A DNA stretch of 64,000 nucleotides from sequence record MT596505.1; one strand, given 5' to 3'. The notes below the pieces were generated by a model. It had not been told where the DNA came from. It was given only the letters and a program-made list of their open reading frames with translations, and searched no databases. Position 1 is the first letter of the stretch; the number at the start of each line of letters is the position of its first letter. Both the position numbers and the translations under genes were made by a program. This document shows positions 1 to 45,307 of this stretch, piece after piece. Source of the DNA: Staphylococcus phage vB_SepM_BE08.

Positions 1-180
1 ATAATTAAAGAAGATACCAGTAATTATGAAAGCATATATAATGTCATGTTACTTGATACTAACTCAAAAAAGCCTGAATTATATTTCTCTGAGCCTATAA
101 CACTAGAAGAAATAGAAGAGTTTGGATTTAATCTAGTAAGTAAAAAAGGTAACTATAATATTAAGATAGAATACAGTTAA
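1..180 (+). CDS. 3' end (59 codons) of a plus-strand gene, convergent with the minus-strand array; hypothetical
   Basis: Frame 1 is open from base 1 to a TAA at 178-180. A terminator follows at 254-288. Confidence 0.4.
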   Translation: MIKEDTSNYESIYNVMLLDTNSKKPELYFSEPITLEEIEEFGFNLVSKKGNYNIKIEYS

Positions 181-253
181 TACTACATGGACTATACATT
201 AGAATAGTTTAACTATATATTAGAACAATTGAATAGTATATCAGAATAGTTGA

Positions 254-288
254 GTACCGCTTCAGTAATATAGAAGCGGTACTTTTTT
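254..288 (+). terminator. Rho-independent terminator
   Basis: Perfect 10-bp stem gtaccgcttc/gaagcggtac, 9-nt loop, then a T6 run. GC-rich hairpin in AT-rich DNA. Confidence 0.75.
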
Positions 289-362
289 GTTTATTATTAA
301 GTTGTATACAATAGTAATGTAATGTTTAAATATACTATAGTAGTAATATAAATAAATTATAG

Positions 363-387
363 TAAACAGGTAACGTCAAAACAGGTC
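363..387. repeat. Two direct AAACAGGT repeats 15 bp apart (iteron-like)
   Basis: aaacaggtaa at 363-372 and aaacaggtca at 378-387, inside the non-coding tract. Confidence 0.5.
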
Positions 388-558
388 AAGACAACGAATA
401 GGACAGACAAAAAAATCCTAGGGTAATTGGTTTACTTTTTTCTTTTTTTCTATATACTTTTAATTTTTCCTTATTTATACTATATGGTTTTCTTCTCTCC
501 TTTTATCTCCTCTCTTCTACTTTTTTAAATAACTCTACCTACATATCTATTTTTTTAT

Positions 559-584
559 CTATATATATATATATATATATATAT
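559..584. repeat. (TA)13 dinucleotide microsatellite
   Basis: atatatatatatatatatatatatat read directly. Confidence 0.95.
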
Positions 585-730
585 GTCTATATACTTTATT
601 CCTCCCTTTTAATAATCAAAGAGTAATAATACAAAGAATAGGAGTTTTATTTATATATTAATAAGTAATAAGTAATTAGTTTCTTTTTTCCTTGGTTTTC
701 TTTTTTTTTCTTATTTTATTTAAAGTCAAC

Positions 731-749
731 ATTATTATTATTATTATTA
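731..749. repeat. (ATT)6 trinucleotide repeat
   Basis: attattattattattatt read directly, within the pyrimidine-rich non-coding tract. Confidence 0.9.
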
Positions 750-903
750 CTATACCTCATCCCTATTTCTTCTATATTACTTTATTAATAAAACCCCTAT
801 ATATACTACTTATACATAAGGGTCTTTACTTATATTATTCTTATTCTACTTGTACATACTTACTTAACTGATAAATAATTTTTTTATGTTATTCTATTCA
901 TAA

Positions 904-1062
904 TTATTTACTATATAATTTAGCTAAAGTTTCAAGCGGTAATTCAATTAATTCCCCACTAAATAATAAATCTTTTACTTTTTTAGGTACAGATACATGA
1001 TAATCTAAGTTTAAACTATTTATGATTTCACTAGCTTTCCAGTTTAATTCAATTTTATACAT
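904..1062 (-). CDS. Small hypothetical ORF (52 aa)
   Basis: ATG at 1062 to TAA at 904. Weak RBS. Below the ORF-track length threshold. Confidence 0.25.
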   Translation of the reverse strand: MYKIELNWKASEIINSLNLDYHVSVPKKVKDLLFSGELIELPLETLAKLYSK

Positions 1063-1149
1063 AGAATTTTCTCTAACCTTTTGATGTAACTTTTTAATAA
1101 GTTCTGGTTTATGAGTTAAATGTTGAAACTATGCCTAATGATTTTAATT

Positions 1150-1392
1150 TCATTTATTAATCCTCCTTCTAATTTTAGCATAATCCCACAGCTGTTTATA
1201 TTCTGGAATAACAGGTAATAAATAATACTTATCTGTACTATTCTTATTTAGTTTCTTCAAAACTCTTTTTGCTTTCTTTTTATTAGGGAATATTCTTGGC
1301 GTTATCTTAGTTAAAATAGTAAAATCTTTATACTTCTTATCATAAAAAGCAATTGAGTGTTCAAGTTCTGTAGCTATAACATATTTAGTCAT
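1150..1392 (-). CDS. Hypothetical protein (80 aa)
   Basis: ORF in the co-directional tightly packed array. Confidence 0.5.
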   Translation of the reverse strand: MTKYVIATELEHSIAFYDKKYKDFTILTKITPRIFPNKKKAKRVLKKLNKNSTDKYYLLPVIPEYKQLWDYAKIRRRINK

Positions 1393-1487
1393 TATTAATC
1401 CTCCTTATTAAATTTACCTTTATTATACAACAAAACCTCAACTATGTCAATAGCTTAAGTTTTTTTATAATAATCACAGCTCCTTTT

Positions 1488-1880
1488 TTAACTATCTATA
1501 AAGTTATTCAATTTTATTTCTCTATCTCTAGCTTCTATTCTTTCTTTTCTATCTCTTTCTTTCTCACGTTTTTCAATTCTTTTTTGAGTATCTAAATGTT
1601 CTTTTAGGCAATAATGTAAAAAATCCATTAACGTTTCACAATGTTTATATTTTTCATAATCAGTATTCATTTTATGACTAAGAACACCTGCATAATGACC
1701 ATGTGTGATAAATGCAATAACCTCACCTTTATAGAGGACATTAATCCCAGAGGGGAGTATGTCACCTAGCTGGCAATCTCGATATTTAATTTTAAATCCT
1801 TGTTCACGCATTGTTTCAGTTTGTATATTACCTAACTCTTTAACCTTATCTACTAAAGCGTCAAACACTTTAAATTCCAT
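1488..1880 (-). CDS. Hypothetical protein (130 aa) with a charged Arg/Glu-rich C-terminus
   Basis: ORF in the array. C-terminal KRIEKREKERDRKERIEARDREIK. Confidence 0.55.
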   Translation of the reverse strand: MEFKVFDALVDKVKELGNIQTETMREQGFKIKYRDCQLGDILPSGINVLYKGEVIAFITHGHYAGVLSHKMNTDYEKYKHCETLMDFLHYCLKEHLDTQKRIEKREKERDRKERIEARDREIKLNNFIDS

Positions 1881-1893
1881 TACTACCTCTCCT

Positions 1894-2337
1894 TTAGCTT
1901 AAATACATACCAATCTTAGGTTCTGATAGTTTATTTCTATATTCTAGGAAACTAAGACTTATATGTTCTATATTATATTCATGATGTTTTACTTTAAAGA
2001 AAAGGTAAAAGGCATCTGCAATATCGTTATCGTAATTTGAAAAGAAATCTTCAATTTCAAAAGTTGCACCATCTATGTTTATAGACATAATAGTACTTAT
2101 ATCAGACTTGTTAAACAAATGTAATCTCTCTACTAATGCTTTATACTTCTGAATTAAATGCTTATCATTAATAGTTGCACGAAGTATATTAGTAAAACTA
2201 TAGCTGTAATCATTATTTTTCAACGTTTCACGTATACTAAAATCTAAATCTGACACAAATAGAGATAATAGTTCTCTTGTATGCTCTAATTCTTCCTTTT
2301 TGTTTTTATTTATTAATTCTTTAATATCAATAGTCAT
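1894..2337 (-). CDS. Hypothetical protein (147 aa)
   Basis: ORF in the array. Confidence 0.55.
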   Translation of the reverse strand: MTIDIKELINKNKKEELEHTRELLSLFVSDLDFSIRETLKNNDYSYSFTNILRATINDKHLIQKYKALVERLHLFNKSDISTIMSINIDGATFEIEDFFSNYDNDIADAFYLFFKVKHHEYNIEHISLSFLEYRNKLSEPKIGMYLS

Positions 2338-2357
2338 TATCCATTCTCCTTTACTTT

Positions 2358-2696
2358 TTATCTATTTGCCACTTTAATCAGTTCATCTATTAAATTGCTT
2401 ACTTTTTTAATTTCTTCTAAACCAGAAAATTCAAGACAAATTCTTTCAAATTCTCTATGGTTTACGATAGGTTCTGCATTATTATAAACCACATCTCTAC
2501 TATTCTCATATCCATTTTCAATGATAAGTGCTAAATAACCATCTTCAGTTTTTGCTGTTTTAAGTATATTCTTATTTTTTTCTATGATGATAGAAGAAGT
2601 CATTACATCATCATATTTAATTATTTTTTTATTATCTTCCTTTGCTTCATCTTCAGTTAAAGTATCGTAAATAACTTCTTTCCAAACATTAGTCAT
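2358..2696 (-). CDS. Hypothetical protein (112 aa)
   Basis: ORF in the array. Confidence 0.55.
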   Translation of the reverse strand: MTNVWKEVIYDTLTEDEAKEDNKKIIKYDDVMTSSIIIEKNKNILKTAKTEDGYLALIIENGYENSRDVVYNNAEPIVNHREFERICLEFSGLEEIKKVSNLIDELIKVANR

Positions 2697-2714
2697 TATT
2701 CATTCTCCTTTATG

Positions 2715-3170
2715 TTACTTCCTTTTATTTTTTACATAATCCATTTGTTTTTGGTATAACCCATCGTCTTTTTCTTTTTCCATTAATAAAGGTAATACAG
2801 TATTATAAGCATAATCATTTATTTTTCTTCTATTTTTAGATAATTTAATTCTATTGCCTACACTATTACCATATTTTACTCTTAAATCATCACATTTATC
2901 AGCTAAAAATTCAAAAGGTGCTGTTATAATACTAAAAATAAAGTAAACACCTTCTAATATATACTCAGGAATTTTTAAAAAGAAAGCTTTAATACTATGA
3001 ATACATCTTTCTCTCTTCCATTTTTTAATTAGCTTTTTTAAATAAGGTCTATGTTCTTTAGCAATTTCTAATTGTTCTTCGTTTAAGAAATCAGAATTAT
3101 CATTAACGATATACTCTCCAAAAGCACTATAAACTTCATTTTTAATTCTTTTTACCATAATACTATTCAC
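2715..3170 (-). CDS. Hypothetical protein (151 aa), possible membrane segment
   Basis: ORF in the array. Hydrophobic stretch VYFIFSIITAPFEFL. Confidence 0.55.
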   Translation of the reverse strand: MNSIMVKRIKNEVYSAFGEYIVNDNSDFLNEEQLEIAKEHRPYLKKLIKKWKRERCIHSIKAFFLKIPEYILEGVYFIFSIITAPFEFLADKCDDLRVKYGNSVGNRIKLSKNRRKINDYAYNTVLPLLMEKEKDDGLYQKQMDYVKNKRK

Positions 3171-3173
3171 TCC

Positions 3174-3410
3174 TTAGTTTTTATCATCTCCAACAGTAGC
3201 AAACGCAATTCTTAAAGCTAATCTTTCCATAATATGTGATAGTGATTTATCTAGAAATTTGTCAAATTCATCTCTATATTCTTCTATTACATCTAAAACT
3301 TCTTCATCTTCTTTACTATCAAACTCAGTCATAATATCCCAAATATTTATATCATACTTACTATTTTTTAATACTTGCATAACTTTATCATAATCAATTC
3401 TATTACTCAT
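3174..3410 (-). CDS. Hypothetical protein (78 aa), acidic
   Basis: ORF in the array. Confidence 0.5.
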   Translation of the reverse strand: MSNRIDYDKVMQVLKNSKYDINIWDIMTEFDSKEDEEVLDVIEEYRDEFDKFLDKSLSHIMERLALRIAFATVGDDKN

Positions 3411-3412
3411 AA

Positions 3413-3832
3413 CTACTTCTCCTCCTCTTTTATATTAATAATTAATTCGTCAAAACCATGTATATAGGTATATGATTGATAATTATTATTATCATCACCA
3501 TATCCCTCTTCATAAGGAACAGCTATTGTTTGTCTTGATTCGTCAGAATATACTAATGTAACATGAGCAATATCATCAAATTCAGTAAGTCTATTGAATA
3601 TTACTTCCTCATTTTCAAAATTAAAAGGGTTATATCGTAATTTTGTCGATTTTTTTACAATAAAGTAAATATCTTGTGCACTTTTATACGTTTCTACTTC
3701 CTCGTCTTCATAATTTAAATGTTCAATACTATCAGAAATACCTTTAATATGAAGACCTCTAATATATTTTGATTGTATTTCCATACTATCGCAATTTTCA
3801 AATGTTAAAATAATACTTTTTAATTTACTCAT
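3413..3832 (-). CDS. Hypothetical protein (139 aa)
   Basis: ORF in the array. Confidence 0.55.
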   Translation of the reverse strand: MSKLKSIILTFENCDSMEIQSKYIRGLHIKGISDSIEHLNYEDEEVETYKSAQDIYFIVKKSTKLRYNPFNFENEEVIFNRLTEFDDIAHVTLVYSDESRQTIAVPYEEGYGDDNNNYQSYTYIHGFDELIINIKEEEK

Positions 3833-3863
3833 ACTATATTCTCCTTAATTTTTTAAATATCAA

Positions 3864-4064
3864 CTAAATTATTTTATTAGCTTTCTCTAATGCTAACATT
3901 AGTTCAGTCATTACATCCCTTTTTTCAGAATTAGAAACGGGTAAATCAAGATACTCTTTAATAATTTTATGTGCCTGAACATAACTTAAGTCATCAATAT
4001 TTTCTGATTTACTTACTACTTTATTTGCTTTATCATGTAAATTTTTAATTTGTTTATTATTCAT
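3864..4064 (-). CDS. Hypothetical protein (66 aa)
   Basis: ORF in the array. Confidence 0.45.
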   Translation of the reverse strand: MNNKQIKNLHDKANKVVSKSENIDDLSYVQAHKIIKEYLDLPVSNSEKRDVMTELMLALEKANKII

Positions 4065-4076
4065 AATTACCTCTCC

Positions 4077-4523
4077 TTAATTTATATTAACATATCTACG
4101 AACGAATTTCTTAATATTTACTTTTGTAGAATGTTTATACCATTTCTTTAAATGAATGTCATAACCTTGAAGTATAAAGTACTTAATACCATTTCCTAAA
4201 TGTATTTCTGTTTCAATAGCCTGGTCTTTAAACCTTGACTTTGCATAACCATTTTTAATACTAAATATTCTAGTCGTGTCTTGCCAACGTTTAGGAGTTT
4301 CTTCAAACATGTATTCTAAGATAGGATAATGGTTTTTATTATCAAAACTTAAAGTGTTTTTATATAAATATGCTTTCCTATTCTCAATTTCTATTGGAAT
4401 AGGGTTTTGAGAAAACCAAGCACACTTATCATTATTCTCTTTTTTAATAACAAGAACACCATAATCTAAACTAGCCATTCTAATCACCTTTTCCTTTATA
4501 TTAAGTATATTTATAATATACAC
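4077..4523 (-). CDS. Hypothetical protein (148 aa)
   Basis: ORF with AAGGTGA RBS. Consensus promoter immediately upstream. Confidence 0.6.
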   Translation of the reverse strand: MYIINILNIKEKVIRMASLDYGVLVIKKENNDKCAWFSQNPIPIEIENRKAYLYKNTLSFDNKNHYPILEYMFEETPKRWQDTTRIFSIKNGYAKSRFKDQAIETEIHLGNGIKYFILQGYDIHLKKWYKHSTKVNIKKFVRRYVNIN

Positions 4524-4543
4524 TATATTTATACAGTTGTCAA
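4515..4543 (-). promoter_or_regulatory. Sigma-A-like promoter (TTGACA-17-TATATT) for the 4077..4523 gene
   Basis: On the minus strand: -35 TTGACA (plus 4538-4543), 17-nt spacer, -10 TATATT (plus 4515-4520). Confidence 0.55.
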
Positions 4544-4663
4544 TAGTTATTTTTAAGTGTTTTTAGAGCTTTATAGTGTTGTTTTATTATTTAGGTACAT
4601 TTATACCTAAAATTTATTAGATATTCTGTATGCTTCTTATATAAGCTTTGTGTAGGTATAAAA

Positions 4664-4691
4664 ATAACCTTTACATATTAGTAAAGGTTAT
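4664..4691 (-). terminator. Intrinsic terminator after the 4710..5114 gene
   Basis: 11-bp perfect inverted repeat ataacctttac/gtaaaggttat with a 6-nt loop, followed by a T-run on the minus strand. Confidence 0.6.
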
Positions 4692-4709
4692 TTGTTATTT
4701 AAACATTAT

Positions 4710-5114
4710 TTATTTTACCAATTCTCCATCTTTCCAAATGAGTGTCATTGTGTCATCTTCATTAACTAAATATATACATTTAGTAACAATACGGTTAGAA
4801 GTGTACCCTAGAATATCATTAATACTTACAGATTTATGAATATCCGGAAATTTTGATTTTGTGTAATCTAAATTTGTATATATTTCTAAGACAGAATCTA
4901 GTTTTGTTTTTTCTGTAATTTCTTCTTCAACTTCAACTGTGAAAGTTTCATCTTTATTAATTGGGTCATCTATAAATACTGTTTGAAAACGATTAAACCT
5001 CACACAACTATTATCAAGGTTGCTATAAAATGTTTTTTCTTTAATATTGTTCTTCCAAACATATTCAATCAATTCTGGTAATGCCATTTCTATTTTTCTT
5101 TTAATTTTAACCAT
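4710..5114 (-). CDS. Hypothetical protein (134 aa); paralog of the 5385..5801 product
   Basis: Shared M-KIK-KI-M-L-ELI..NNI..VE-EEEITE-TKL..LE-Y..IH-S-SIN-I..KC-YLV-ED pattern. Confidence 0.6.
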   Translation of the reverse strand: MVKIKRKIEMALPELIEYVWKNNIKEKTFYSNLDNSCVRFNRFQTVFIDDPINKDETFTVEVEEEITEKTKLDSVLEIYTNLDYTKSKFPDIHKSVSINDILGYTSNRIVTKCIYLVNEDDTMTLIWKDGELVK

Positions 5115-5125
5115 AATATCTCTCC

Positions 5126-5392
5126 TTAGTCTATAAAATCATACGTTTGTTTAAAAATATATGGTTTAACCGCATAAAACTCACCTTGTACACCTTTCAC
5201 AACATAGTCTCCTTCAGATACTCCTAGAGTTCCTTCTAATGTATCAATACCGAAAAGAATATCAAAATTAACCTCATCATAAAAAGGATGAGCTTTACCA
5301 TTAGTCCAGTCACAAATTTCTTGTTTGTTTTCATCTCCATTATACTGAATATATTCAACTTCTACTGGTTTCTTTTTTGCTTTTTTAATCAT
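5126..5392 (-). CDS. Hypothetical protein (88 aa)
   Basis: ORF between the two paralogs. Confidence 0.5.
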   Translation of the reverse strand: MIKKAKKKPVEVEYIQYNGDENKQEICDWTNGKAHPFYDEVNFDILFGIDTLEGTLGVSEGDYVVKGVQGEFYAVKPYIFKQTYDFID

Positions 5393-5801
5393 TGTTTATA
5401 TCTCCTTTACTATCACATACATTCATGTAAATCAATGACATTGACATATCTTCTTGTACTAAATACAAACATTTAGTCTTAAATTCATCTTGGTTATTTG
5501 TAATAATTTCATTAATACTTTTACTACGGTGTATAGTAGAACAAACTTCTCCTGAATAAGTATTATAATATAATTCTAATATAACTTCTAACTTTGTTCC
5601 TTCAGTAATTTCTTCTTCAATCTCTACAGATATGTTACTATCTATATTAAAGCAACCACTAACTGATATGTCTCCAAACATATCAAAACTAACTATATCT
5701 CCAAAATTATTTTTATAATCTTTTGAAGTTATATTATTTTCTTTTGCCCATTTAATTAGTTCATCTAAACTCATTGTAATTTCTTTTTTAATTTTTATCA
5801 C
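5385..5801 (-). CDS. Hypothetical protein (138 aa); paralog of the 4710..5114 product; GTG start
   Basis: GTG start at 5801 with an AGGAGG RBS 8 nt upstream. Sequence similarity to 4710..5114. Confidence 0.6.
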   Translation of the reverse strand: MIKIKKEITMSLDELIKWAKENNITSKDYKNNFGDIVSFDMFGDISVSGCFNIDSNISVEIEEEITEGTKLEVILELYYNTYSGEVCSTIHRSKSINEIITNNQDEFKTKCLYLVQEDMSMSLIYMNVCDSKGDINND

Positions 5802-5901
5802 GAGTTATACCTCCTATATTTTTTATTACCAACTTACTCTTTCTAATCGTTTTTGATAATATGGTAACTCATCATAGAATTCTCTAGCTTCTGTCTTCCT
5901 T

Positions 5902-6105
5902 TTAATCCTTCTTTTTAAACTTTAAAGTCACTACATCTCTAAAATGTTTATTTCTTGTATGCGTTTCTGAAAGTTTATAATTAGTTATCATTTCAATAAC
6001 TTCATAGTCTACTAGGTTCAGACGAGATATATGAATATTAGTTTCATCTTTTCCGTCAAATAATCTTTTTAATATTTTTATTGTTGGTTGCTCAAAGTTT
6101 TTCAT
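5902..6105 (-). CDS. Hypothetical protein (67 aa)
   Basis: ORF in the array. Confidence 0.45.
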   Translation of the reverse strand: MKNFEQPTIKILKRLFDGKDETNIHISRLNLVDYEVIEMITNYKLSETHTRNKHFRDVVTLKFKKKD

Positions 6106-6137
6106 TTTTTAACCCCTTTTGATTAAGTATTGTCTCA

Positions 6138-6536
6138 TTAATGTTTCACCACTGGATAATGAATATCTTTTATTTTTAACGAACATATGCTGTAATAAAA
6201 ATCACCGTTACCTGCATCTGCATAACATTCACCCTGTGCTATAGGGTTTTGGTTATGATATAAAACAACAGTAGCCAAACTTTCTGATTCAGCACTCCAT
6301 GTATCAAACTTTTGTTGTTCTCTCTCATTCTCTATTTTAACATTTGTAATAACTGCATCTAGTTTTACATTAGTCCATTCTCCACCAGCACTTGCACAAC
6401 AATCTTGTTCACTTTCCACTATTTCTACAAGAGTGCCATCATCTAAAGTCAATGTTTTATCAGTCCATTCCTTGACTTTTTTATATAACAATTGTTTTTT
6501 TATTTCCTTAAATTCTTTATAATTAATTTTATACAT
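6138..6536 (-). CDS. Hypothetical protein (132 aa)
   Basis: ORF in the array. Confidence 0.55.
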   Translation of the reverse strand: MYKINYKEFKEIKKQLLYKKVKEWTDKTLTLDDGTLVEIVESEQDCCASAGGEWTNVKLDAVITNVKIENEREQQKFDTWSAESESLATVVLYHNQNPIAQGECYADAGNGDFYYSICSLKIKDIHYPVVKH

Positions 6537-6564
6537 TTATATTCACTCCATACTTAGTATTTAT

Positions 6565-6918
6565 TTAGTGTTCTTCTATTTTTTCACTCATTGATTGAAT
6601 AATGTGTAATACCATAGTTGCTAAATCGTTTTTTACATCATCACCAGTATAAACATTAGCTAGTGTGTCGCAAAGCGGACATGTACCATAAAAATCCGAT
6701 GTCGTTATATCCGGAACACCATCTACTTTAGATTTAAAAGTACAAAATATTTGTCCTTGATAATCTCCTAAATATCTAACAATAGGTGTAGTATTATGTG
6801 TATCTTTTAAAACCAGTTCTCCTGCTAATTGATGTAAATCTTCATAAAAATAATGATTATTAGTATCTATGTGCTTTTTAATTTCTTTTGTAGTGATTCC
6901 TTTAGCATTTTCAATCAT
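6565..6918 (-). CDS. Hypothetical protein (117 aa)
   Basis: ORF in the array. Confidence 0.55.
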   Translation of the reverse strand: MIENAKGITTKEIKKHIDTNNHYFYEDLHQLAGELVLKDTHNTTPIVRYLGDYQGQIFCTFKSKVDGVPDITTSDFYGTCPLCDTLANVYTGDDVKNDLATMVLHIIQSMSEKIEEH

Positions 6919-6921
6919 TTA

Positions 6922-7140
6922 TTATTCCTCCATGTTTTTTATAATATTAATTATATCTAAGTACATATTAATATATTTATCCATTAATTTTAATTGTTTT
7001 TGGTATAAATCTGTATCTATAGTTGAATCTATACTACAACATTGAGCTATAAAATCTTCTTTATAATTAACAATATTGGAAAGTTCCTTAAGTAATACTT
7101 CTATCGGTTCTCTTACATACGTTAATTTACTTTCGACCAT
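6922..7140 (-). CDS. Hypothetical protein (72 aa)
   Basis: ORF in the array. Confidence 0.45.
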   Translation of the reverse strand: MVESKLTYVREPIEVLLKELSNIVNYKEDFIAQCCSIDSTIDTDLYQKQLKLMDKYINMYLDIINIIKNMEE

Positions 7141-7160
7141 AATTGTGTTACTAACACTCC

Positions 7161-7454
7161 TTATTCAACTTCAAATCCATTTTTAACTAGTTCTTTTCTG
7201 AAATACTTAACTGCTTCTACTGCTTCATTATAAGTATTTATATGTTCTTCCATTTCTTCTAATGCAAGAACACCAGGACTACTTGTTCCAATTTTGAAAT
7301 ATGTTTCTACACCCATATCACTTTTACCATAACCGTGAATATCTGTATGAGGTTTTGTTCTATCAATAGGTGTTACTTTAAGAATTCTAATATACTCACT
7401 CCCTAATACTGTTAATTTATAGTTACCAAATTCCGTTTCAAATTGTTTTTCCAT
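7161..7454 (-). CDS. Hypothetical protein (97 aa)
   Basis: ORF in the array. Confidence 0.5.
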   Translation of the reverse strand: MEKQFETEFGNYKLTVLGSEYIRILKVTPIDRTKPHTDIHGYGKSDMGVETYFKIGTSSPGVLALEEMEEHINTYNEAVEAVKYFRKELVKNGFEVE

Positions 7455-7544
7455 AATATCAATCTCCTTTTTACTTGTTAAATCAATCTTAACATATAAA
7501 AATTATAATGTCAACAGCTAAATAAAAAAAAGGAGTAAGTTTCC

Positions 7545-8045
7545 CTACTTCTTTATTATACTAATATCTAAAAAATCATTATCTCTTATTTTATGGTTTT
7601 TAATATTAATATTTTTATTATTTTCAAGACTAATTTTATCTCCTGATTCTATGTTTTTACTGTGTCTAGAATTAATAACATACAATTCATTTTTTGCATC
7701 TTTAAAGTATATTTTTTGCTCTATTGCATCTCTATCATCTACTTTTGGTTCAAAGTTTTCTACTTCTGTTACTTTAGTATAACCTTTTGTTTCATAAATT
7801 TTATCTTTTACAAGTAAATAATTCATTGTTAAACCAAAGATAATAACACCAAATACTAATGGAGGTACAACTATAGAATGAAGTATAAAAGATGAAGATA
7901 ATTTTATTTTTTCTACACTTAAAAAGAATATTGAAAAAACAATAATAGCAAATATAGATATAGTAATACCTTCTACAATAAGGTCAGTATTAAAGTTTTC
8001 TTTTAAAAACTCAAAATAACCTATATCTACTTTATTTATATCCAT
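7545..8045 (-). CDS. Hypothetical membrane protein (166 aa, two N-terminal TM segments)
   Basis: Hydrophobic stretches ITISIFAIIVFSIFFL and VVPPLVFGVIIFGLTM. Confidence 0.55.
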   Translation of the reverse strand: MDINKVDIGYFEFLKENFNTDLIVEGITISIFAIIVFSIFFLSVEKIKLSSSFILHSIVVPPLVFGVIIFGLTMNYLLVKDKIYETKGYTKVTEVENFEPKVDDRDAIEQKIYFKDAKNELYVINSRHSKNIESGDKISLENNKNINIKNHKIRDNDFLDISIIKK

Positions 8046-8046
8046 A

Positions 8047-8529
8047 TTAAATCCTCCTTATACTTTTTAGTAACTCATTATACTCATAAACATATCCTTT
8101 AACTTTTGAATGTTCTAATAACGATACAATATAATTTGAACTAGACTCACTTTCAAAGTCTTCTGTTGAAACATCTGTATGATTAATTCTAAAATCAGAT
8201 AAATAGATGCGTTCTTTTCCCCCTACTAAATCAACATTAACTACAGCTCTATTAATAATACTTGAAGCACTCTCTGAATCATTTATATTTAAAAGTACTT
8301 CATCTTCAAATTCAATAATTGCTTTATCATAAATTTCTTTATTATCTATATCGTTAACACCACTATAAAATAAAATATTTACATGGTCTGTAACATCTGC
8401 AATCATACCTGATTCTTCATCATAATTTAAATCTCCAGCAAGTACAGTACCATTAGGAAGTAAGCAAACATCACAGTAATCAATGAATTCTTTGTTCATT
8501 GTATTCCAAACTATATATTTAAAAGTCAT
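8047..8529 (-). CDS. Hypothetical protein (160 aa)
   Basis: ORF in the array. Confidence 0.55.
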   Translation of the reverse strand: MTFKYIVWNTMNKEFIDYCDVCLLPNGTVLAGDLNYDEESGMIADVTDHVNILFYSGVNDIDNKEIYDKAIIEFEDEVLLNINDSESASSIINRAVVNVDLVGGKERIYLSDFRINHTDVSTEDFESESSSNYIVSLLEHSKVKGYVYEYNELLKSIRRI

Positions 8530-8553
8530 TTATATTTAACTCCTTTTTAATTA

Positions 8554-8754
8554 TTACTGATTAGGTAAACCAGCTTCTAGACATTCATTATATGCTCTTT
8601 CGTTATCAATTTCTGTTCTATAATAATCAATAATTTGTCCGATTTCAAGATGTGTCATTTTGTTAATTTCACTAGCTTTATATATTTCATCATCTTTTAA
8701 TCCGTATTCTTTTTGTAATCCTTGCACATATTTAATTTGTTTCTTTGTAGCCAT
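8554..8754 (-). CDS. Hypothetical protein (66 aa)
   Basis: ORF in the array. Confidence 0.45.
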   Translation of the reverse strand: MATKKQIKYVQGLQKEYGLKDDEIYKASEINKMTHLEIGQIIDYYRTEIDNERAYNECLEAGLPNQ

Positions 8755-8760
8755 TATAGG

Positions 8761-8928
8761 TCATCCTTCTTTTTTAGTTTTGAATTCTTTATGCATTTTA
8801 TCCCAAGATTCTGCTTTTCTATACACTTCTTCTATTTCTTTATCTATATCATCACTATAAGAACCATATATTATATCTAAGACATCTTGTTTTTCTTTAT
8901 AGTTAATATCATAAATGTTATATGACAT
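8761..8928 (-). CDS. Small hypothetical protein (55 aa); not in the ORF track
   Basis: ATG at 8928 preceded by a GGAGGA RBS. Fills the gap between 8754 and 8944. Confidence 0.45.
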   Translation of the reverse strand: MSYNIYDINYKEKQDVLDIIYGSYSDDIDKEIEEVYRKAESWDKMHKEFKTKKEG

Positions 8929-8943
8929 TACTAAGTTCCTCCT

Positions 8944-9231
8944 TTATTTAAAGTATAAATTAGATAAAAGTGCTAATTCCTTAATCTCTTTTCTACTAGT
9001 TAAACTTAAGTGTTTCTTTTTATTGCCTTTTATAATATCTATCTCGTATAACCAACCATCAAAGTATGGCTTGCTTAAATGCTTCATTAATTCTCTTTCT
9101 AAATAAATAGGGTGGTCTGCTTTAATGTATACACACTTAGAACTAGGTAAATACATTGAATACCTAAGTTGTTGTTGCTCAATCTTTTTTTCTGGGATAT
9201 CGTTAAACCAATCCATAATACGATGCCACAT
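8944..9231 (-). CDS. Hypothetical protein (95 aa)
   Basis: ORF in the array. Confidence 0.5.
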   Translation of the reverse strand: MWHRIMDWFNDIPEKKIEQQQLRYSMYLPSSKCVYIKADHPIYLERELMKHLSKPYFDGWLYEIDIIKGNKKKHLSLTSRKEIKELALLSNLYFK

Positions 9232-9651
9232 TTAATCTTTCCCCTCCTTTATTGTTTTAATTATTATTACTATAACACCTATCACAATAATTGTCAATAT
9301 AATATATAAAAATAATATTGGATGAATAAAACATAATGCTAATATTGAAAATATACAACCACCTAATATACCACAGAACAATAACTTATACCATTTAACT
9401 TTTTCTTCTTGATTAAAATCATCAAGAAAAAGAATAACTATACTAAATACAGAAAAAAACCAAATAATAGCTGGTATGGTTAAAAAATATGACTGAATAT
9501 TGAAATGATTTAATATTAAACTAGGAAGTATTGCAATAAAAGATATTACACCGAGTATAATAACAATTCCAGCCAAAACTAATAACACTAATATTACAGG
9601 TAATAGTAAATATTCCCACAAATTTTTAAATAATCTTTTAATAAAATTCAT
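9232..9651 (-). CDS. Hypothetical polytopic membrane protein (139 aa)
   Basis: Four hydrophobic helices. Confidence 0.55.
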   Translation of the reverse strand: MNFIKRLFKNLWEYLLLPVILVLLVLAGIVIILGVISFIAILPSLILNHFNIQSYFLTIPAIIWFFSVFSIVILFLDDFNQEEKVKWYKLLFCGILGGCIFSILALCFIHPILFLYIILTIIVIGVIVIIIKTIKEGKD

Positions 9652-9669
9652 ATTTTCCTCCTTTTTAAA

Positions 9670-9888
9670 CTACTTTAAGTAGTCTGTAAATTCATTTATT
9701 ATTGTATCCTTATTACTGATATACAACATGTTGTCGTACTTAACATCATATATTTCAATAAACTCAAATGAATCCAAATCATCTTTTTTATTTAATAAAT
9801 CAGACAAATTATTAAACTTAAGTACTACATCATCCATCCCTCCTGCTGGGTAATATTCAGAATAACTAAATAGTAAAAATCTATACAT
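9670..9888 (-). CDS. Hypothetical protein (72 aa)
   Basis: ORF in the array. Confidence 0.45.
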   Translation of the reverse strand: MYRFLLFSYSEYYPAGGMDDVVLKFNNLSDLLNKKDDLDSFEFIEIYDVKYDNMLYISNKDTIINEFTDYLK

Positions 9889-9933
9889 AATATTTCCTCC
9901 TATAAAAATGATTTTTTTAAAATTTATTTAATA

Positions 9934-10149
9934 TTATAAAATTTTTAAAATATTATCTGATTCATCTACTACTAATATATTTTCGTGTTTTATAGGTACA
10001 TAAACACCGTCTATTTTTACAACAGGTTCATATGTAAAATAACTACCTAATGAACTCTCTCCTGTATCACAATCTACAGTTTTAATCATTGGATAAGCAA
10101 GACTTCTTTCGTATATCCATTTTTCTATATCTACTTTAATTTCTCTCAT
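9934..10149 (-). CDS. Hypothetical protein (71 aa)
   Basis: ORF in the array. Confidence 0.45.
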   Translation of the reverse strand: MREIKVDIEKWIYERSLAYPMIKTVDCDTGESSLGSYFTYEPVVKIDGVYVPIKHENILVVDESDNILKIL

Positions 10150-10177
10150 TATAATTTCTCCTTATAAAATGTATATT

Positions 10178-10687
10178 TTAAATCCTTTCAATTGTATCAG
10201 TGTTTAAATTCAAATAATACTTTACCTTTTTATTTAATCCTCCTTTAGTAAAACCTTCAGATGTTCCTTGCCCTTGCATATAAAAATACTTAAACAGTTC
10301 ATTATTGTATCGTAAGTATATATCCATACCGAAATATGTTTCAATATAAAATGGAGGATATTCCATCACATTATCATTGTAAAAGTTATTGATATACTTA
10401 CAAATAGATTCTAACTTTTGATGCATAAACTCTTCACTTGAATATAGATGTTTATACTTATCTTTATAGAGATACAGAATATCTTCTGTTGAGATACTTC
10501 CGAGTATCTCAATTGTCTCAGTAAACATTTTATTTAAATCAAAATCTTTGTTTTTGGCTTTCTTTAAAATTAAATTTCTTCTATTTTCTTTTTCTTTTAA
10601 TCCATTATTAATGCTTTCTATTTGTTCATCAGTCATATTTGATATATTTTTCAATATTTTATCAAATTTGTCATCTATATTACTCAT
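10178..10687 (-). CDS. Hypothetical protein (169 aa)
   Basis: ORF in the array. Confidence 0.55.
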   Translation of the reverse strand: MSNIDDKFDKILKNISNMTDEQIESINNGLKEKENRRNLILKKAKNKDFDLNKMFTETIEILGSISTEDILYLYKDKYKHLYSSEEFMHQKLESICKYINNFYNDNVMEYPPFYIETYFGMDIYLRYNNELFKYFYMQGQGTSEGFTKGGLNKKVKYYLNLNTDTIERI

Positions 10688-10719
10688 ATAGTATCGCTCC
10701 TTATAAAATGATTCTTTTA

Positions 10720-10914
10720 TTACCTCATATATTTATTCCTATTTACTGTACTTGGTTTTGGTAGCTTATCAATGTCATATTGCTTTACATCTTCATGCAT
10801 ATATGTTTTTAATAATTTATCATTCTTTATAATGTATTTGCTATAATCTTTACTACTATTAAATTCTAAATGGCTTTTATCTTTTAAATTTTCTTTTTTC
10901 TTACCTTTTTCCAT
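10720..10914 (-). CDS. Hypothetical basic protein (64 aa)
   Basis: ORF in the array. Confidence 0.4.
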   Translation of the reverse strand: MEKGKKKENLKDKSHLEFNSSKDYSKYIIKNDKLLKTYMHEDVKQYDIDKLPKPSTVNRNKYMR

Positions 10915-10954
10915 ATTTAAAACTCCTTTACTTTATTGTAGTCTAAGTATATAA

Positions 10955-10984
10955 CAAAAAACACCCAGTGTCAAGGGTGTTTTT
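10955..10984 (-). terminator. Intrinsic (bidirectional-type) terminator after the 10990..12099 gene
   Basis: Stem acaccc/gggtgt with an 8-nt loop, flanked by an A-run and a T-run. Confidence 0.6.
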
Positions 10985-10989
10985 ATAAT

Positions 10990-12099
10990 TTATTCAATAT
11001 ATTCAATATTATCTTTAGTTTCTAATATACCTTTTGCTGTATTATATACTAACTCAGGTTTATCTTCGACATCAAATGGAACAATGTTTTTACTTTTATC
11101 AAGTTCAAACTTTATTTTACTCATTAAGTCTTTAAAACCTACAAAATAACCTTTTCTTTCATCTAGATTATTCTTTTGATACGTGTATGTTCTATCAAAA
11201 GGTTTAACAAAGAATCTATAAGTATTTCTGCCTTTAACATAGTTAAATGATATTGCGTGACTTTCATAATATCTAATACTTGTTTCTTGTAAGATATAAC
11301 CATTAATAGGTATTTTTGTAATACTATCAAAAGCATCTTGGAAATCAGATAAATCATATAATAAGTCATTTGTATAAGATTTAATAGTTTCTAATACATT
11401 ATTTTCAGTAACAAATACGTATTTTAAATCACGAGTAGTAAAACTAGGAATACATATAGCTTCTTTAACATCTCTAAAATTCCCTTTAGAAGATAATATT
11501 ATTTCATTTATTTTTTGTTCTCTATCAGGAACTAATCCTATAATTAAAGGTATATTATTATATTTCAATTCTACATTAATACTCTGACTTTCTATAATAT
11601 ATGGTTTAACTATTTCTTTAATTTTTTGAAAACTTTTGATTTTATTCTCTACAGAAGTTATATTATAGTTTATTTCTTTAAAAATAGAACTTAATGCTTT
11701 ATGTGCTTTATAACCATCTAAAGTATAATCCAAATCATAAATACTCATTAAAAAATAAGATAAAACTTTTTTGTTTAAGCTATTATAAATTTCTAGATTT
11801 AAACTAGGATTTTTATACGAACAATCTAGTTTTAGTAAAAATTTAAAATTTTCATGTCCGTATTTACGTGTACGTTCAAGACTATACTTAGAGTAGTCAC
11901 TAACTTCTACTAAATCAAAGTCCAAATCTTCTTTGATTTTATTTACTAAACTTTTAGCAATATCATACTTGGAAAATAGGAACATATCATCTTTTTTCTT
12001 TATTGTTGGTTCTGGTTTAGACTCGAGAAATGCAAAAATTACACTAAAAATAACTAAAAAAACTACGAAAACTATCATCATACCTAATACAATTTTCAT
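10990..12099 (-). CDS. Hypothetical membrane-anchored protein (369 aa; N-terminal signal anchor)
   Basis: N-terminal IVLGMMIVFVVFLVIFSVIFAFL followed by a large soluble domain. Confidence 0.6.
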   Translation of the reverse strand: MKIVLGMMIVFVVFLVIFSVIFAFLESKPEPTIKKKDDMFLFSKYDIAKSLVNKIKEDLDFDLVEVSDYSKYSLERTRKYGHENFKFLLKLDCSYKNPSLNLEIYNSLNKKVLSYFLMSIYDLDYTLDGYKAHKALSSIFKEINYNITSVENKIKSFQKIKEIVKPYIIESQSINVELKYNNIPLIIGLVPDREQKINEIILSSKGNFRDVKEAICIPSFTTRDLKYVFVTENNVLETIKSYTNDLLYDLSDFQDAFDSITKIPINGYILQETSIRYYESHAISFNYVKGRNTYRFFVKPFDRTYTYQKNNLDERKGYFVGFKDLMSKIKFELDKSKNIVPFDVEDKPELVYNTAKGILETKDNIEYIE

Positions 12100-12152
12100 T
12101 ATTTATACACTCCTTTGTAATTATTTTCATTAGTATCTTCTCCTTTTATTTT

Positions 12153-12662
12153 TTATGAAAATACATCTTTCATTTTGTTATAAGCATCTAATAGTTTATT
12201 ATATTCTTGTTTAGAAATAGTTACTTTTTCTTGTATACTTGATTTTTTAAAATGTTCTTCATAATCTCGTTTACAAGGTCTAACAATATAATCAATTTGT
12301 TTCTTTGGAAAGAGGTGTTTTTCTACGGGTTTATTTCCTTTACCATCTCTATTTTGAGTAATAACAGCTACGTTATCAAAATTATGGTTGTAAACAATGA
12401 TACCATTGAATCCAAATATAGATATTTTTTCTGATACAAATATATCCCCTTCTCTATAATCGTCAGTTTTTAATAATTCTTTGGACTTAATGATTTTCCA
12501 AGAATTAGGTAATTTCTCGTATTTCATTCTACTAGCATTTAACTTAGTTGTATATTTATTTAAAGTTAATCGTTTTACATAATTAGATACTAGATTTGTG
12601 GATTGGTACCCATTAATATTGTTACTTTTTATAAATTTTCCTACGTAATCATTTAAATACAT
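12153..12662 (-). CDS. Hypothetical protein (169 aa)
   Basis: ORF in the array. Confidence 0.55.
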   Translation of the reverse strand: MYLNDYVGKFIKSNNINGYQSTNLVSNYVKRLTLNKYTTKLNASRMKYEKLPNSWKIIKSKELLKTDDYREGDIFVSEKISIFGFNGIIVYNHNFDNVAVITQNRDGKGNKPVEKHLFPKKQIDYIVRPCKRDYEEHFKKSSIQEKVTISKQEYNKLLDAYNKMKDVFS

Positions 12663-12676
12663 GTTTTATTTTCTCC

Positions 12677-12853
12677 TTTATAAATTTTCTAAATGGTATT
12701 TGTAAGAACGTTTTACTTTGTTTAGCTCTTCTAATGCTTTATTTAAACATACAGTATTGATAAGACCATTAGTGTCTAATTTTAAGTACTCTACATCAGT
12801 AATAATTCTTTCTAAAGAATTCACATACTCCTTTAATTGCTCTTCACTTTCCA
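12677..12853 (-). CDS. Small hypothetical protein (58 aa); not in the ORF track
   Basis: ATG at 12853 preceded by an AAAGGAG RBS; TAA at 12677. Confidence 0.45.
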
Positions 12854-13086
12854 TTATATAACTCCTTTCTATATACCTAATGCTATTAAGATAAGGCTTA
12901 CTAAGATAAGCACTACCATAATTAACATTATTAATAGAGGTATGGCTTCTTCTTTATTTCCATCTTTAAATAGTTTAATTACTTCTACTAAAACACTAAA
13001 ACAAATAGCTAAGTAAAATAAAGCTAATACACTTGCTAAAATAATAAAACCTATAACTTTTACTCCTCCTTATTTATTATATATAA

Positions 13087-13115
13087 ACTATAACATAAAA
13101 AAAGACCCCTGTCAA
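13087..13115 (-). promoter_or_regulatory. Sigma-A-like promoter (TTGACA-17-TATAGT); its -35 lies in the loop of the adjacent terminator
   Basis: On the minus strand: ATTGACA inside the hairpin at 13104-13123, 17-nt spacer, -10 TATAGT. Confidence 0.4.
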
Positions 13116-13123
13116 TAGGGGTC
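13097..13123 (-). terminator. Intrinsic terminator after the SPFH gene
   Basis: Stem gacccct/aggggtc with a 6-nt loop, then T7 on the minus strand. Confidence 0.65.
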
Positions 13124-13174
13124 AGTAAAAAATTTTAATACTATTTTAGATTAACAATCGGTTCTTTATCTATA

Positions 13175-13987
13175 TTATTTATGTCTCATATCTAATATAG
13201 CATTTCCTGAATCTGGTAATGTGATAGGTGTATCACCTTTCCATTTTTCGATAAGTTGTTTTTGTAGTAACTCATCTGTTAATGATTCTTCTACAATTTC
13301 ATTTGCTTTCTTAGTACCTTTTGCTTCAATTTCTTTACGTTCAGCTTCTTCTTTAGCAATTTGTTTGTCAACTTTCTTTCTCTCTAATTCTTGATTTGCT
13401 TTAACACGACTGTCAATTGCTTTTTGAGTATTTTTATCTGCTTTTGGAGAACTTAAAGCAATATCTTCAACAATAAAACCTTGACCTTTAAGATTTTCTT
13501 CAAGTTTATCTAAAGTAGATTTTTTAATTTCACTTGTTTTAACACCGAAAGCATCAATTACTGAGTATTTAGAAACAGATTGACGTACGTTATCTTGTAC
13601 TCTTGAACGTAAATAACCTTTTTCTAGCTGTTCAATATCTGCACTACCAAAACGATTAAATAATTCAACTGCTTTTGAGCTATCAACTTTATAGTTTACA
13701 TCAATATCTAAATTAAGGTTTTTACCATCTGACGTTGATACATTCATATCTTTGTAGCTGATAGTTTGTGTTCTTGTAGGATATTCATTTACTCTGTTCA
13801 TAGGTGCTACTAAGTGCCAGCCAGGACTTAGAGTATTATCCTTAACACCTTTAGGTGAGTATACAACACCTACTGTTCCTTGCGGTACTCTTTCAATACT
13901 TAGAAACGCAATTATAATTGCTACAATAATAATAATACCGCCTATAGTTAATCCTAAACCTGCTTTTACTTTACTTTCCATAATCAT
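13175..13987 (-). CDS. SPFH/band-7 (prohibitin/stomatin-like) membrane protein (270 aa)
   Basis: N-terminal TM helix, then RVPQGTVGVVYSPKGV, typical of the start of an SPFH domain. Lys/Glu-rich coiled-coil C-terminus. Confidence 0.65.
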   Translation of the reverse strand: MIMESKVKAGLGLTIGGIIIIVAIIIAFLSIERVPQGTVGVVYSPKGVKDNTLSPGWHLVAPMNRVNEYPTRTQTISYKDMNVSTSDGKNLNLDIDVNYKVDSSKAVELFNRFGSADIEQLEKGYLRSRVQDNVRQSVSKYSVIDAFGVKTSEIKKSTLDKLEENLKGQGFIVEDIALSSPKADKNTQKAIDSRVKANQELERKKVDKQIAKEEAERKEIEAKGTKKANEIVEESLTDELLQKQLIEKWKGDTPITLPDSGNAILDMRHK

Positions 13988-14256
13988 TCTCCTTTTTTAA
14001 TATCTTTATGAAGTTTTTTTAACTCTGATATTTCTTCTTCAAGTTCTTTAATTTGAGATACACTCGATGTTGATGATTCTAATGCTTCTTTTTCATGGTT
14101 TTTTAATTCAATCTCATAGTCAACCATTTTTAATCTCTTATTAATTTCTCTTTTCTCTATTTCTTTCCTTACATACTCAAATAGCTTAGTTGCTCCAATA
14201 ATTATACCTAGTATGATTACTACAAAAATTAAAGCAACTAATAGTAACCAAGCCAT
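13984..14256 (-). CDS. Small membrane/coiled-coil protein (90 aa)
   Basis: N-terminal TM helix LLLVALIFVVIILGIIIGA followed by coiled-coil repeats. Start overlaps the SPFH gene by 4 nt. Confidence 0.55.
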   Translation of the reverse strand: MAWLLLVALIFVVIILGIIIGATKLFEYVRKEIEKREINKRLKMVDYEIELKNHEKEALESSTSSVSQIKELEEEISELKKLHKDIKKGE

Positions 14257-14326
14257 ATATACCTAACCTACTTTCTTCTCTTTAACTATTCTTGTTTAAG
14301 TTTATCTTTTTGTTCAGGTGTTAACA

Positions 14327-39968: not shown

Positions 39969-40161
39969 ATTTATTCTTCATCCGTTGTCAAAAACTTATA
40001 AAACTTTATAAATCTTATTCCTTTTTCAATGTACCCTCTTTTGAGTATTTCATATACATAGATTACTTCTTATTACTCTACTTGAGTTTGTATGATACTC
40101 CAAAGGCTTAAATTCCCGTACAACGAACGGTACATATATTTAGTATCTTGTTTTTGATATT

Positions 40162-44908: not shown

Positions 44909-45307
44909 CTATGCTCCAATCACTTTATAATTTTCTTTAAAGTAATTTAATATATTTTCTACTTCATTAAAATGTCCTGATTGCTCAACTTTAGCAATTA
45001 GAGGTATATTAAACATGTTAGAAATTGTTCTTCCTGCTCCACAGAAAAATTTACCCCATTGTTTATTTCCTGTTCCAATAACTTCTTTAGGGGGATGGTT
45101 ATTATTAATTAATTTTTTTATCTGTACAGGCATTTCACCTTTCATATATGTTGGTGTAATTAATATATAATCTCTATTAATAACTTCTTTACCTGTTTTA
45201 ACTCTTAATGTCTCAAATGAGTTATCAGGATTTATTTTATTTACTAACTTTTCTGTTTGACCTGTTCCTGAAAAGTAAACTATTAATGGTCTTTCTTTGC
45301 TTGTCAT
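44909..45307 (-). CDS. nrdI: NrdI flavodoxin-like protein
   Basis: 132 aa with a flavodoxin-like N-terminus LIVYFSGTGQTEKLV. Sits immediately upstream of nrdE. Confidence 0.8.
   Translation of the reverse strand: MTSKERPLIVYFSGTGQTEKLVNKINPDNSFETLRVKTGKEVINRDYILITPTYMKGEMPVQIKKLINNNHPPKEVIGTGNKQWGKFFCGAGRTISNMFNIPLIAKVEQSGHFNEVENILNYFKENYKVIGA

Follow-up and report, generated by a model that had tools for sequence, protein, structure and literature searches.

The 64,000-nucleotide (nt) stretch of Staphylococcus phage vB_SepM_BE08 analyzed here (sequence record MT596505.1; hereafter the window) raises the question of what is represented by a noncoding tract of about 600 bp, at positions 300 to 900, on which transcription converges. 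An initial annotation of the window had offered a replication origin, a packaging site, or a terminal-repeat boundary. The last of these proved to be the best supported, while the origin fared poorly, there being no DnaA boxes, only two repeats, and poor conservation. Judged from the comparisons set out below, the tract is probably where the nonredundant unit genome, at its right end, joins a long terminal repeat (LTR) of ~11 kb, with the left LTR boundary, and by inference a physical end of the virion DNA, between positions 420 and 421 (420|421). The initial annotation had placed the tract where the right genome end or a long terminal repeat would begin. The start of the repeat was borne out, but the "right genome end" was imprecise, as 420|421 would be the left end of the virion DNA and the variable spacer beyond it would lie ~11 kb inside the right end.

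The first 3 kb of the window matched only myophages of the genus Sepunavirus from S. epidermidis, including phiIPLA-C1C, phiIBB-SEP1, 110, BE05, BE25, Quidividi, Twillingate, and Terranova, and every match was to the minus strand of the respective record. By these matches the window is a Sepunavirus sequence (Herelleviridae, Twortvirinae) presented in the reverse of the usual orientation. The replication-gene core was 99.0 to 99.4% identical between the window and its Sepunavirus relatives. All nonnested open reading frames (ORFs) of at least 100 amino acids (aa) between 1488 and 63813 lie on the minus strand, and the minus-strand gene series, which spans 900 to 64000, ends at 904. From the strand of the long ORFs and the Sepunavirus matches it was deduced that the window holds the long replication/early module in reverse and that the tract lies at the end of this module.

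The position of the boundary was deduced from an alignment of 13 sequences, comprising the window, IPLA-C1C, SEP1, BE05, 110, PG-2021_23, PG-2021_1, 80A, BE25, Quidividi, Twillingate, and two IMG/VR contigs. Between the stop codon of the plus-strand gene and the CCTA at the boundary (window 168 to 420), the mean pairwise identity was 96.4% (minimum, 92.5%). Identity persisted through the following GGGT to position 424 and then broke at 424|425, so that the conserved part ends with CCTAGGGT (417 to 424). In the first 200 nt beyond this motif the mean identity fell to 54% (minimum, 30%). The comparison with relatives for conserved boundary repeats recommended by the initial annotation thus found conservation up to 424 (96%) and none from 425 to 790, where at least four unrelated versions were present. 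The boundary motif in its longer form, CCTAGGGTAATT (417 to 428), has the reverse complement AATTACCC|TAGG and includes an AvrII site (CCTAGG, 417 to 422).

The same point is marked in public records. The GenBank records of Quidividi and Twillingate start with TAGGAC, and position 1 of the Terranova record maps to the equivalent point, while at their ends the three records read AATTACCT, AATCACCC, and ACTAACCC, the final letters being ACCT or ACCC. From these starts and ends it follows that all three genomes were opened at the equivalent of window 420|421, despite carrying three different spacer types.

Further support came from the other end of the proposed repeat, which lies outside the window and was therefore studied in relatives. 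The Quidividi convergent intergenic region at 10,788 to 11,107 contains a segment (~10,865 to 11,058) that was ~70% identical to 114 Kayvirus-type records, and the match fell exactly at the annotated right end of the left LTR in those records. Quidividi CCTCAGGTACCTTA aligned with CCCAGGTACTTA of phage K, and directly afterwards the Sepunavirus sequences split into two types. This second edge is ~10.95 kb from the first in Quidividi, and ~11 kb was estimated for SEP1. The gene content between the edges also corresponds: genes of the K LTR have homologues in Quidividi_015, 016, 017, and 022, and BofL, which in K is the first gene beyond the LTR, has one in Quidividi_028. In SEP1 the very-early Tre homologues are gp142 to 154 (PMC11265418). 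The gene order in relatives fits a Twort-like junction, the site standing after the last gene of the long module and before the Tre homologues and then the BofL homologue. Synteny and homology of the other LTR end are thus directly observed, and taken together the record openings, the second-edge homology, and the gene content point to an ~11-kb LTR between 420|421 and the K-homologous right edge. The pattern TACCTNAGG was found within 21 kb of Quidividi only at the two proposed LTR edges, the pattern having been derived after the sites had been seen.

Immediately inside the right edge, about 100 nt (Quidividi ~10865 to 10960; K ~8400 to 8486) were noncoding yet ~70% identical. This segment carries G-runs in K (GGGGG..GGGG..GGGGG..GGG) and C4/G5 runs in Sepunavirus, as well as a small GGG-N9-10-CCC hairpin. 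It is a candidate for a conserved cis element of that LTR end.

Several observations weigh against placing the LTR edge at 420|421. The paper on Quidividi, Terranova, and Twillingate is silent on how the records were opened, and all three openings may go back to one choice. At the site, no match to the 12-bp inverted repeat that is canonical for K-like phages was found when up to 2 mismatches were allowed. When the 64 kb were scanned without bias with a probe for the K left boundary, 408 to 431 was not the top site, its 16/24 matches being equaled or beaten elsewhere, and it was likewise not the top match for a probe of the Sepunavirus right boundary. Since equal or better matches occur elsewhere, the resemblance to the K motif is by itself not evidence. 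Mosaic phage genomes often show sharp breaks in conservation. Quidividi_002, which lies inside the proposed LTR, weakly matched a gene of the K unique region (E = 8e-4), and in RNA-seq data for SEP1 the genes to the left and right of the tract alike are early, so that the edge is not placed by expression. Two motif comparisons were discarded. The likeness of AATTACCC|TAGGATTTTTTT to K TAAGTACCTG|GGAATTCTTTT (14/21) was dropped after sliding scans gave equal or better sites in the window, and an inverted or direct repeat linking the Sepunavirus right-edge motif to the window site was rejected as not significant.

The sequence beyond the motif (421 to 789) is a hypervariable, pyrimidine-rich spacer of low complexity, which would form the end of the unit genome, as deduced from the repeat and conservation analyses. 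At least four mutually unalignable spacer types were distinguished, with 30 to 45% identity between types. Type 1 is shared by the window, SEP1, Twillingate, IPLA-C1C, BE05, and 110; type 2 is found in PG-2021_23, PG-2021_1, and 80A and is matched by the Terranova spacer; the remaining two are the BE25 type and the short Quidividi type. Between the motif and the terminator hairpin lie as few as 84 nt (Quidividi) and as many as 625 nt (IPLA-C1C), with 366 nt in the window. In the window the spacer contains, in order, T6-7C units (436 to 451), (TA)12 (~560 to 585), 3.1 copies of TAATAAG (659 to 680), T-rich repeats of 10 and 19 nt (684 to 721), a single AAGTCAACA (723 to 731), and (ATT)6 (732 to 749). 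Eight of the 68 TRF arrays of the window fall in 191 to 753, a density ~13 times the mean, and the only arrays of period 2 and period 3 are located there.

This anatomy largely agrees with the features listed in the initial annotation. The tandem TAATAAG and the (ATT)6 were found as described, as were the polypyrimidine runs at 420 to 530 (76.6% pyrimidine), while the reported (TA)13 was present with 12 units rather than 13. The claim of extreme strand asymmetry was upheld as a bias and not as an extreme. The pyrimidine fraction of 420 to 900 was 0.66 against a window mean of 0.583 (standard deviation, 0.032), within the top 1.2% of windows, but the bias has the same direction as in the flanking coding strand and reaches its maximum elsewhere (0.69 to 0.71 near 49.4 kb). 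The G content of the tract, 4.4 to 5.4%, is the minimum of the window.

The proposal that the microsatellites are functional architecture was not sustained: they lie in a dispensable, hypervariable spacer, are nearly absent from Quidividi, and look like products of slippage. Among relatives the copy numbers range from 3 to 12 for (TA)n, 0 to 6 for (TTTTTTC)n, and 0 to 6 for (ATT)n, and in the 84-nt Quidividi spacer (TA)n does not exceed 3 copies and AAGTCAACA is missing. The polymorphism was also observed among seven near-identical Logan assemblies from independent sequencing runs that carry the window spacer type. These differed mainly in copy number, at every repeat, with a handful of point substitutions besides; the varying loci were (TA)n, the TAATAAG/TAATTAG heptamer, a T-run, (ATT)n, and a (TA)n beside the terminator. 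Copy-number drift at every repeat indicates that the repeats first noticed are hypermutable slippage loci in a dispensable segment. A larger rearrangement is present in IPLA-C1C, where a 316-bp tandem duplication (4366 to 4681 and 4682 to 4997) gives two copies of CCTAGGGTAAT. It covers the last ~55 nt of the conserved side, that is, of the proposed LTR, together with the boundary motif and ~260 nt of spacer, and could be real or an assembly artifact.

An alternative explanation is that the spacer at 425 to 790 is itself a packaging signal, either as a pacB-like site for the terminase or a border protein or as a non-B-DNA element, such as a (TA)n cruciform or a purine/pyrimidine tract, that primes duplication of the repeat. 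T7-type phages carry cis-acting packaging elements just outside the terminal repeat, and the spacer lies directly outside the proposed LTR edge, in the corresponding place. Pyrimidines predominate on the same strand in all four spacer types, a (TA)n run being present in most. The distribution of AAGTCAACA also lends some support. This 9-mer occurs once in the 64-kb window and elsewhere in the fetched loci only at LTR borders. It was present in four copies just outside the right edge of the left LTR in K (8531 to 8627) and Fi200W and in one to three copies at the equivalent place in six Sepunaviruses (Quidividi 10990 to 11050); overall, the right edge is followed by one to five direct copies in Kayvirus and Sepunavirus. 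At the left edge, by contrast, a single inverted copy is found 250 to 300 nt outside in 7 of 14 Sepunavirus sequences. In K, TGTTGACTA stands at the equivalent place, ~110 nt before the left edge.

Against the spacer as packaging signal, however, the spacer types cannot be aligned with one another, the Quidividi spacer has neither a (TA)n beyond 3 copies nor AAGTCAACA, half of the relatives are without AAGTCAACA, copy numbers drift freely among near-identical strains, and the single-strand structure of the spacer and of (TA)n showed no excess over shuffled sequences (z = −1.7, 0.07, and −0.1). The explanation is accordingly considered unlikely. A related idea, that the LTR of Twort-like staphylococcal phages is bracketed by a previously undescribed border-specific cis element at which the nuclease or terminase that cuts both edges and restores the repeat would dock, was deemed conceivable but unlikely. 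It draws on the positions of AAGTCAACA and on short repeats akin to the boundary core (AAACAGGTAA, AAACAGGTCA, and CCTAGGGTAA) just inside the left edge. On this view the recurrent tandem duplications across the boundary (316 bp in IPLA-C1C and 35 bp in K and 812) could arise as by-products when the ends are regenerated with errors. A literature search on this 9-mer returned only unrelated primer matches.

It was also considered that the tract is ordinary decayed convergent intergenic DNA and that the LTR edge lies elsewhere, for example, nearer the very-early module, the GenBank openings then having been chosen arbitrarily or by homology. The likeness of the motif to that of K does not exceed chance, the neighboring gene remnant and the indels show general decay, the very-early genes of SEP1 are confined to the distal half of the proposed LTR, and no report of Sepunavirus termini or LTR edges was found in the searchable library. 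This explanation is nevertheless improbable, as in three records, despite their different spacers, the cut falls at the very same base within a conserved motif and as the 240 nt of noncoding DNA on the LTR side are 96% conserved, an unusual level for DNA in decay. Furthermore, the position agrees with the Kayvirus order of last gene, variable repeats, and LTR, and no further TACCTNAGG-type site was found before the well-supported right edge.

The suggestion that the tract is a replication origin, with the AAACAGGT repeats as iterons and the AT-rich (TA)n as a DNA-unwinding element, is unsupported by the sequence and very improbable, since the AT-rich, repeat-rich, untranscribed setting between convergent terminators and the two conserved 10-nt direct repeats 15 nt apart are outweighed by the presence of only two repeat copies, the absence of DnaA boxes (up to 1 mismatch) from positions 1 to 15,000, the lack of any annotated initiator-like gene beside the tract in relatives, the replacement or near deletion of the would-be unwinding part in relatives whose replication genes are 99% identical, and an AT-richness that is undistinctive in a genome of ~25% GC.

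If the tract is the LTR junction, as we propose, the window up to position 420 would be the first 420 nt of the LTR. In this stretch would fall the end of the first LTR gene, a terminator, and a conserved noncoding leader that holds the AAACAGGT repeats. The direct repeats, AAACAGGT[AC]A, are on the plus strand at 364 to 373 and 379 to 388, 15 nt apart and 30 to 55 nt inside the proposed LTR end. The only other exact copy in the 64 kb is at 45189. As stated in the initial annotation, they lie in a GC-richer island (361 to 410; 40% GC against ~21% around it). The repeats were confirmed, but the label "iteron-like" rests on two copies only. The repeats at 364 to 388 are near-invariant among relatives and may be recognition elements. 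The larger segment from 364 to 424, which includes both repeats and CCTAGGGT, was near-invariant in the 13 sequences and is a conserved candidate for a pac or cos site, the spacer not being conserved. This segment is the best candidate for the recognition or cleavage site. A second family of repeats, three tandem 21-bp units with the consensus ACTATATATTAGAATAGTTGA (191 to 253), lies between the stop codon and the terminator, inside the proposed LTR, and was kept in all Sepunavirus sequences compared. Extra copies of ACTATATATTAGAATAGTTGA elsewhere in the window occurred only at chance level.

In virion DNA the edge at 420, marked by CCTAGGGT, would form the physical end on the left and would also open the right LTR copy. 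Virion molecules would then be expected to start with 5'-TAGGA(T/C)TTTTTTGTCTG and to contain the spacer once, ~11 kb from the right end. By analogy with T7, T5, SPO1, and K-type phages, we infer that concatemers would carry one LTR copy between unit genomes, that the packaging nuclease would cut site-specifically at both LTR edges, and that the LTR would be duplicated by strand-displacement synthesis to give a copy at both ends of the packaged molecule. The spacer at 425 to 790 would be nonessential filler that evolves by replication slippage, tandem duplication, and replacement of modules, and most likely it has no role that depends on its sequence. The variability agrees with slippage during replication and with the tendency of genome ends to recombine; among bred Kayvirus hybrids, the recombination sites were concentrated in the LTRs.

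The junction is insulated by two intrinsic terminators. That of the plus-strand gene (252 to 291 overall) consists of a hairpin at 252 to 284 with a 12-bp stem and a 9-nt loop, followed by a T-run to 290, with a folding energy of −19.1 kcal/mol (z = −5.07 against shuffled sequences); it carries a terminator annotation in SEP1 and Quidividi. The second, on the minus strand (790 to 826; −17.9 kcal/mol; z = −4.21 against shuffled sequences), closes the long replication/early module and has a counterpart in every relative compared. A built-in terminator scan reported no terminator, owing to its stem and loop criteria, and both hairpins emerged on folding. With terminators at 252 to 291 on the plus strand and 826 to 790 on the minus strand, transcription converges on the tract, in agreement with the initial annotation, which had also found no credible ORF in 300 to 900.

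On the minus strand this interval contains no ORF of at least 30 aa, and its two plus-strand ORFs (427 to 528 and 692 to 871) translate the pyrimidine runs into poly-Phe/Leu/Ile. A coding role for these two ORFs was rejected on account of the low-complexity translation and of length changes that are not in triplets, the repeats that overlap them changing in relatives by 2, 7, or other nonmultiples of 3. Within the spacer, GenBank annotates the proteins Terranova_208 ("putative membrane protein"; 595 to 777) and BE25_0226 (1782 to 1880), which are probably spurious translations of pyrimidine-rich, low-complexity DNA. No Rfam match was found in the tract at the gathering and E-value thresholds.

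The flanking genes were assigned by comparison with related phages. The first gene inside the proposed LTR is represented by its 3' end (1 to 180, plus strand; TAA stop at 178 to 180), a homologue of SEP1_131 and Quidividi_001. At its position a 267-bp coding sequence is annotated in IPLA-C1C, SEP1, BE05, 110, 80A, and Quidividi. On the other side, the last ORF before the tract is a truncated remnant of the C-terminal ~69 codons of a gene (904 to 1111, minus strand), with a 52-aa ORF at 904 to 1062. The remnant was 92% identical over 207 nt to Alsa1_CDS0112, with unrelated flanks, and the full 126-aa version is intact in phage Alsa_1 (unclassified Twortvirinae), which suggests a recent exchange followed by truncation. 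Other genes occupy this position in relatives (SEP1_130, 337 aa; Quidividi_206, 137 aa). The truncated gene marks a rearrangement scar beside the junction.

Upstream of an 80-aa ORF (1150 to 1392), a perfect sigma-70 consensus promoter (TTGACA, 17 nt, TATAAT; 12/12) was observed on the minus strand at 1422 to 1450, in keeping with the SEP1 RNA-seq data, in which the genes next to the tract are expressed early. Farther away, between genes of the replication module, a RAGATH-18 RNA (RF03064) was detected on the minus strand at 40018 to 40106, with a score of 61 bits, the gathering score being 44.9 (E = 1.2e-9).

The tract acts as a breakpoint in metagenome assembly. Of 10 public metagenome contigs that carry the adjacent 80-aa gene, 5 ended inside or just short of the tract, 4 of them at low-complexity runs, namely, (TA)n, T-runs, or beside the T6-7C units. 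The short contigs broke near window positions 449 and 550 and at (TA)n runs, while long contigs read through the junction. None of the IMG/VR and Logan contig ends that were checked against 420|421 ended there. The IMG/VR contig IMGVR_UViG_3300006456_000001 carries the junction and at 226,865 bp far exceeds the 140-kb unit genome; it may be a concatenated or chimeric assembly.

What is new here is a testable genome-end coordinate and a proposed terminal redundancy of ~11 kb for Sepunavirus, for which the searchable library yielded no earlier report. The kind of structure is already known, a junction with variable repeats having been described in the phage K group, and was to be expected by analogy with K. 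Nothing in this alters the present picture of the biology of these phages. Two findings were mildly surprising, namely, that the K-type 12-bp repeat is not conserved and that AAGTCAACA accompanies the LTR borders in both genera. As the K-type inverted repeat is not universal in Twort-like phages, it is unlikely to be the whole recognition signal. Sepunavirus phages are candidates for therapy against S. epidermidis, and known ends would aid the representation of their genomes, the current records being opened at no fewer than four different places. The true packaged size would be ~151 to 153 kb. In addition, the anatomy of the spacer helps to prevent false annotations of the kind of Terranova_208 and BE25_0226, the tract repeats explain the assembly breaks, and the microsatellite array offers a ready marker for strain typing.

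Among known systems, the T7-type junction has a logic like that proposed here, with one repeat copy, cuts at both edges, and resynthesis of the repeat. It differs in that the T7 repeat is 160 bp long and its cis elements were defined experimentally, while the Sepunavirus edge is proposed from sequence comparison. SPO1 and the Listeria A511/P100-like phages also have linear genomes with direct terminal repeats of several kilobases that carry early host-takeover genes and host-type promoters. No sequence similarity to the SPO1 and A511/P100-like phages was found, the edge sequences of these phages lying outside the comparison.

The closest likeness is to Kayvirus (K, G1, 812, Fi200W, and Team1). 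In phage K and its relatives the LTR is 7.6 to 8.5 kb long, starts right after the last gene of the long module, and ends in a convergent intergenic region. It is divided from the nonredundant DNA by the 12-bp inverted repeats TAAGTACCTGGG and CCCAGGTACTTA (PMC4111496, PMC6022877, and PMC7596081). In phage 812 a 35-bp tandem repeat, present in 2 to more than 20 copies within populations, closes the unit genome just ahead of the right LTR, and 812h1 is without this repeat (PMC6445280). In Team1, insertions described as "repetitive non coding" distinguish the corresponding place from that in G1 and ISP (PMC4111496).

The differences between the two genera are as follows. The inverted repeats TAAGTACCTGGG and CCCAGGTACTTA are lacking at the window site, and a degenerate core common to both, ACC[CT]-T-N-AGG, is statistically unsupported. 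Unlike K treA, the first LTR genes of Sepunavirus face the boundary, so that a terminator rather than promoters adjoins the edge. The proposed Sepunavirus LTR, at ~11 kb, is longer than that of Kayvirus, whose edges were mapped experimentally, while those of Sepunavirus were deduced by comparison. Instead of a single 35-bp unit, the Sepunavirus spacer consists of several micro- and minisatellites and replaceable modules.

In other respects the two arrangements agree. In both, the junction follows the last small gene of a long rightward module and precedes the host-takeover genes of the LTR, and a variable tandem-repeat locus directly outside the left LTR edge is common to both genera. The duplicated unit includes the boundary motif in each case, the K unit holding TAAGTACCT, which is most of the motif, and the IPLA-C1C duplication holding CCTAGGGTAAT. 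The other LTR edge is homologous at the DNA level and is followed by AAGTCAACA repeats. By this analogy, the spacer of vB_SepM_BE08 is best read as what in Sepunavirus corresponds to the 35-bp repeat, likewise variable, at the end of the unit genome in Kayvirus.

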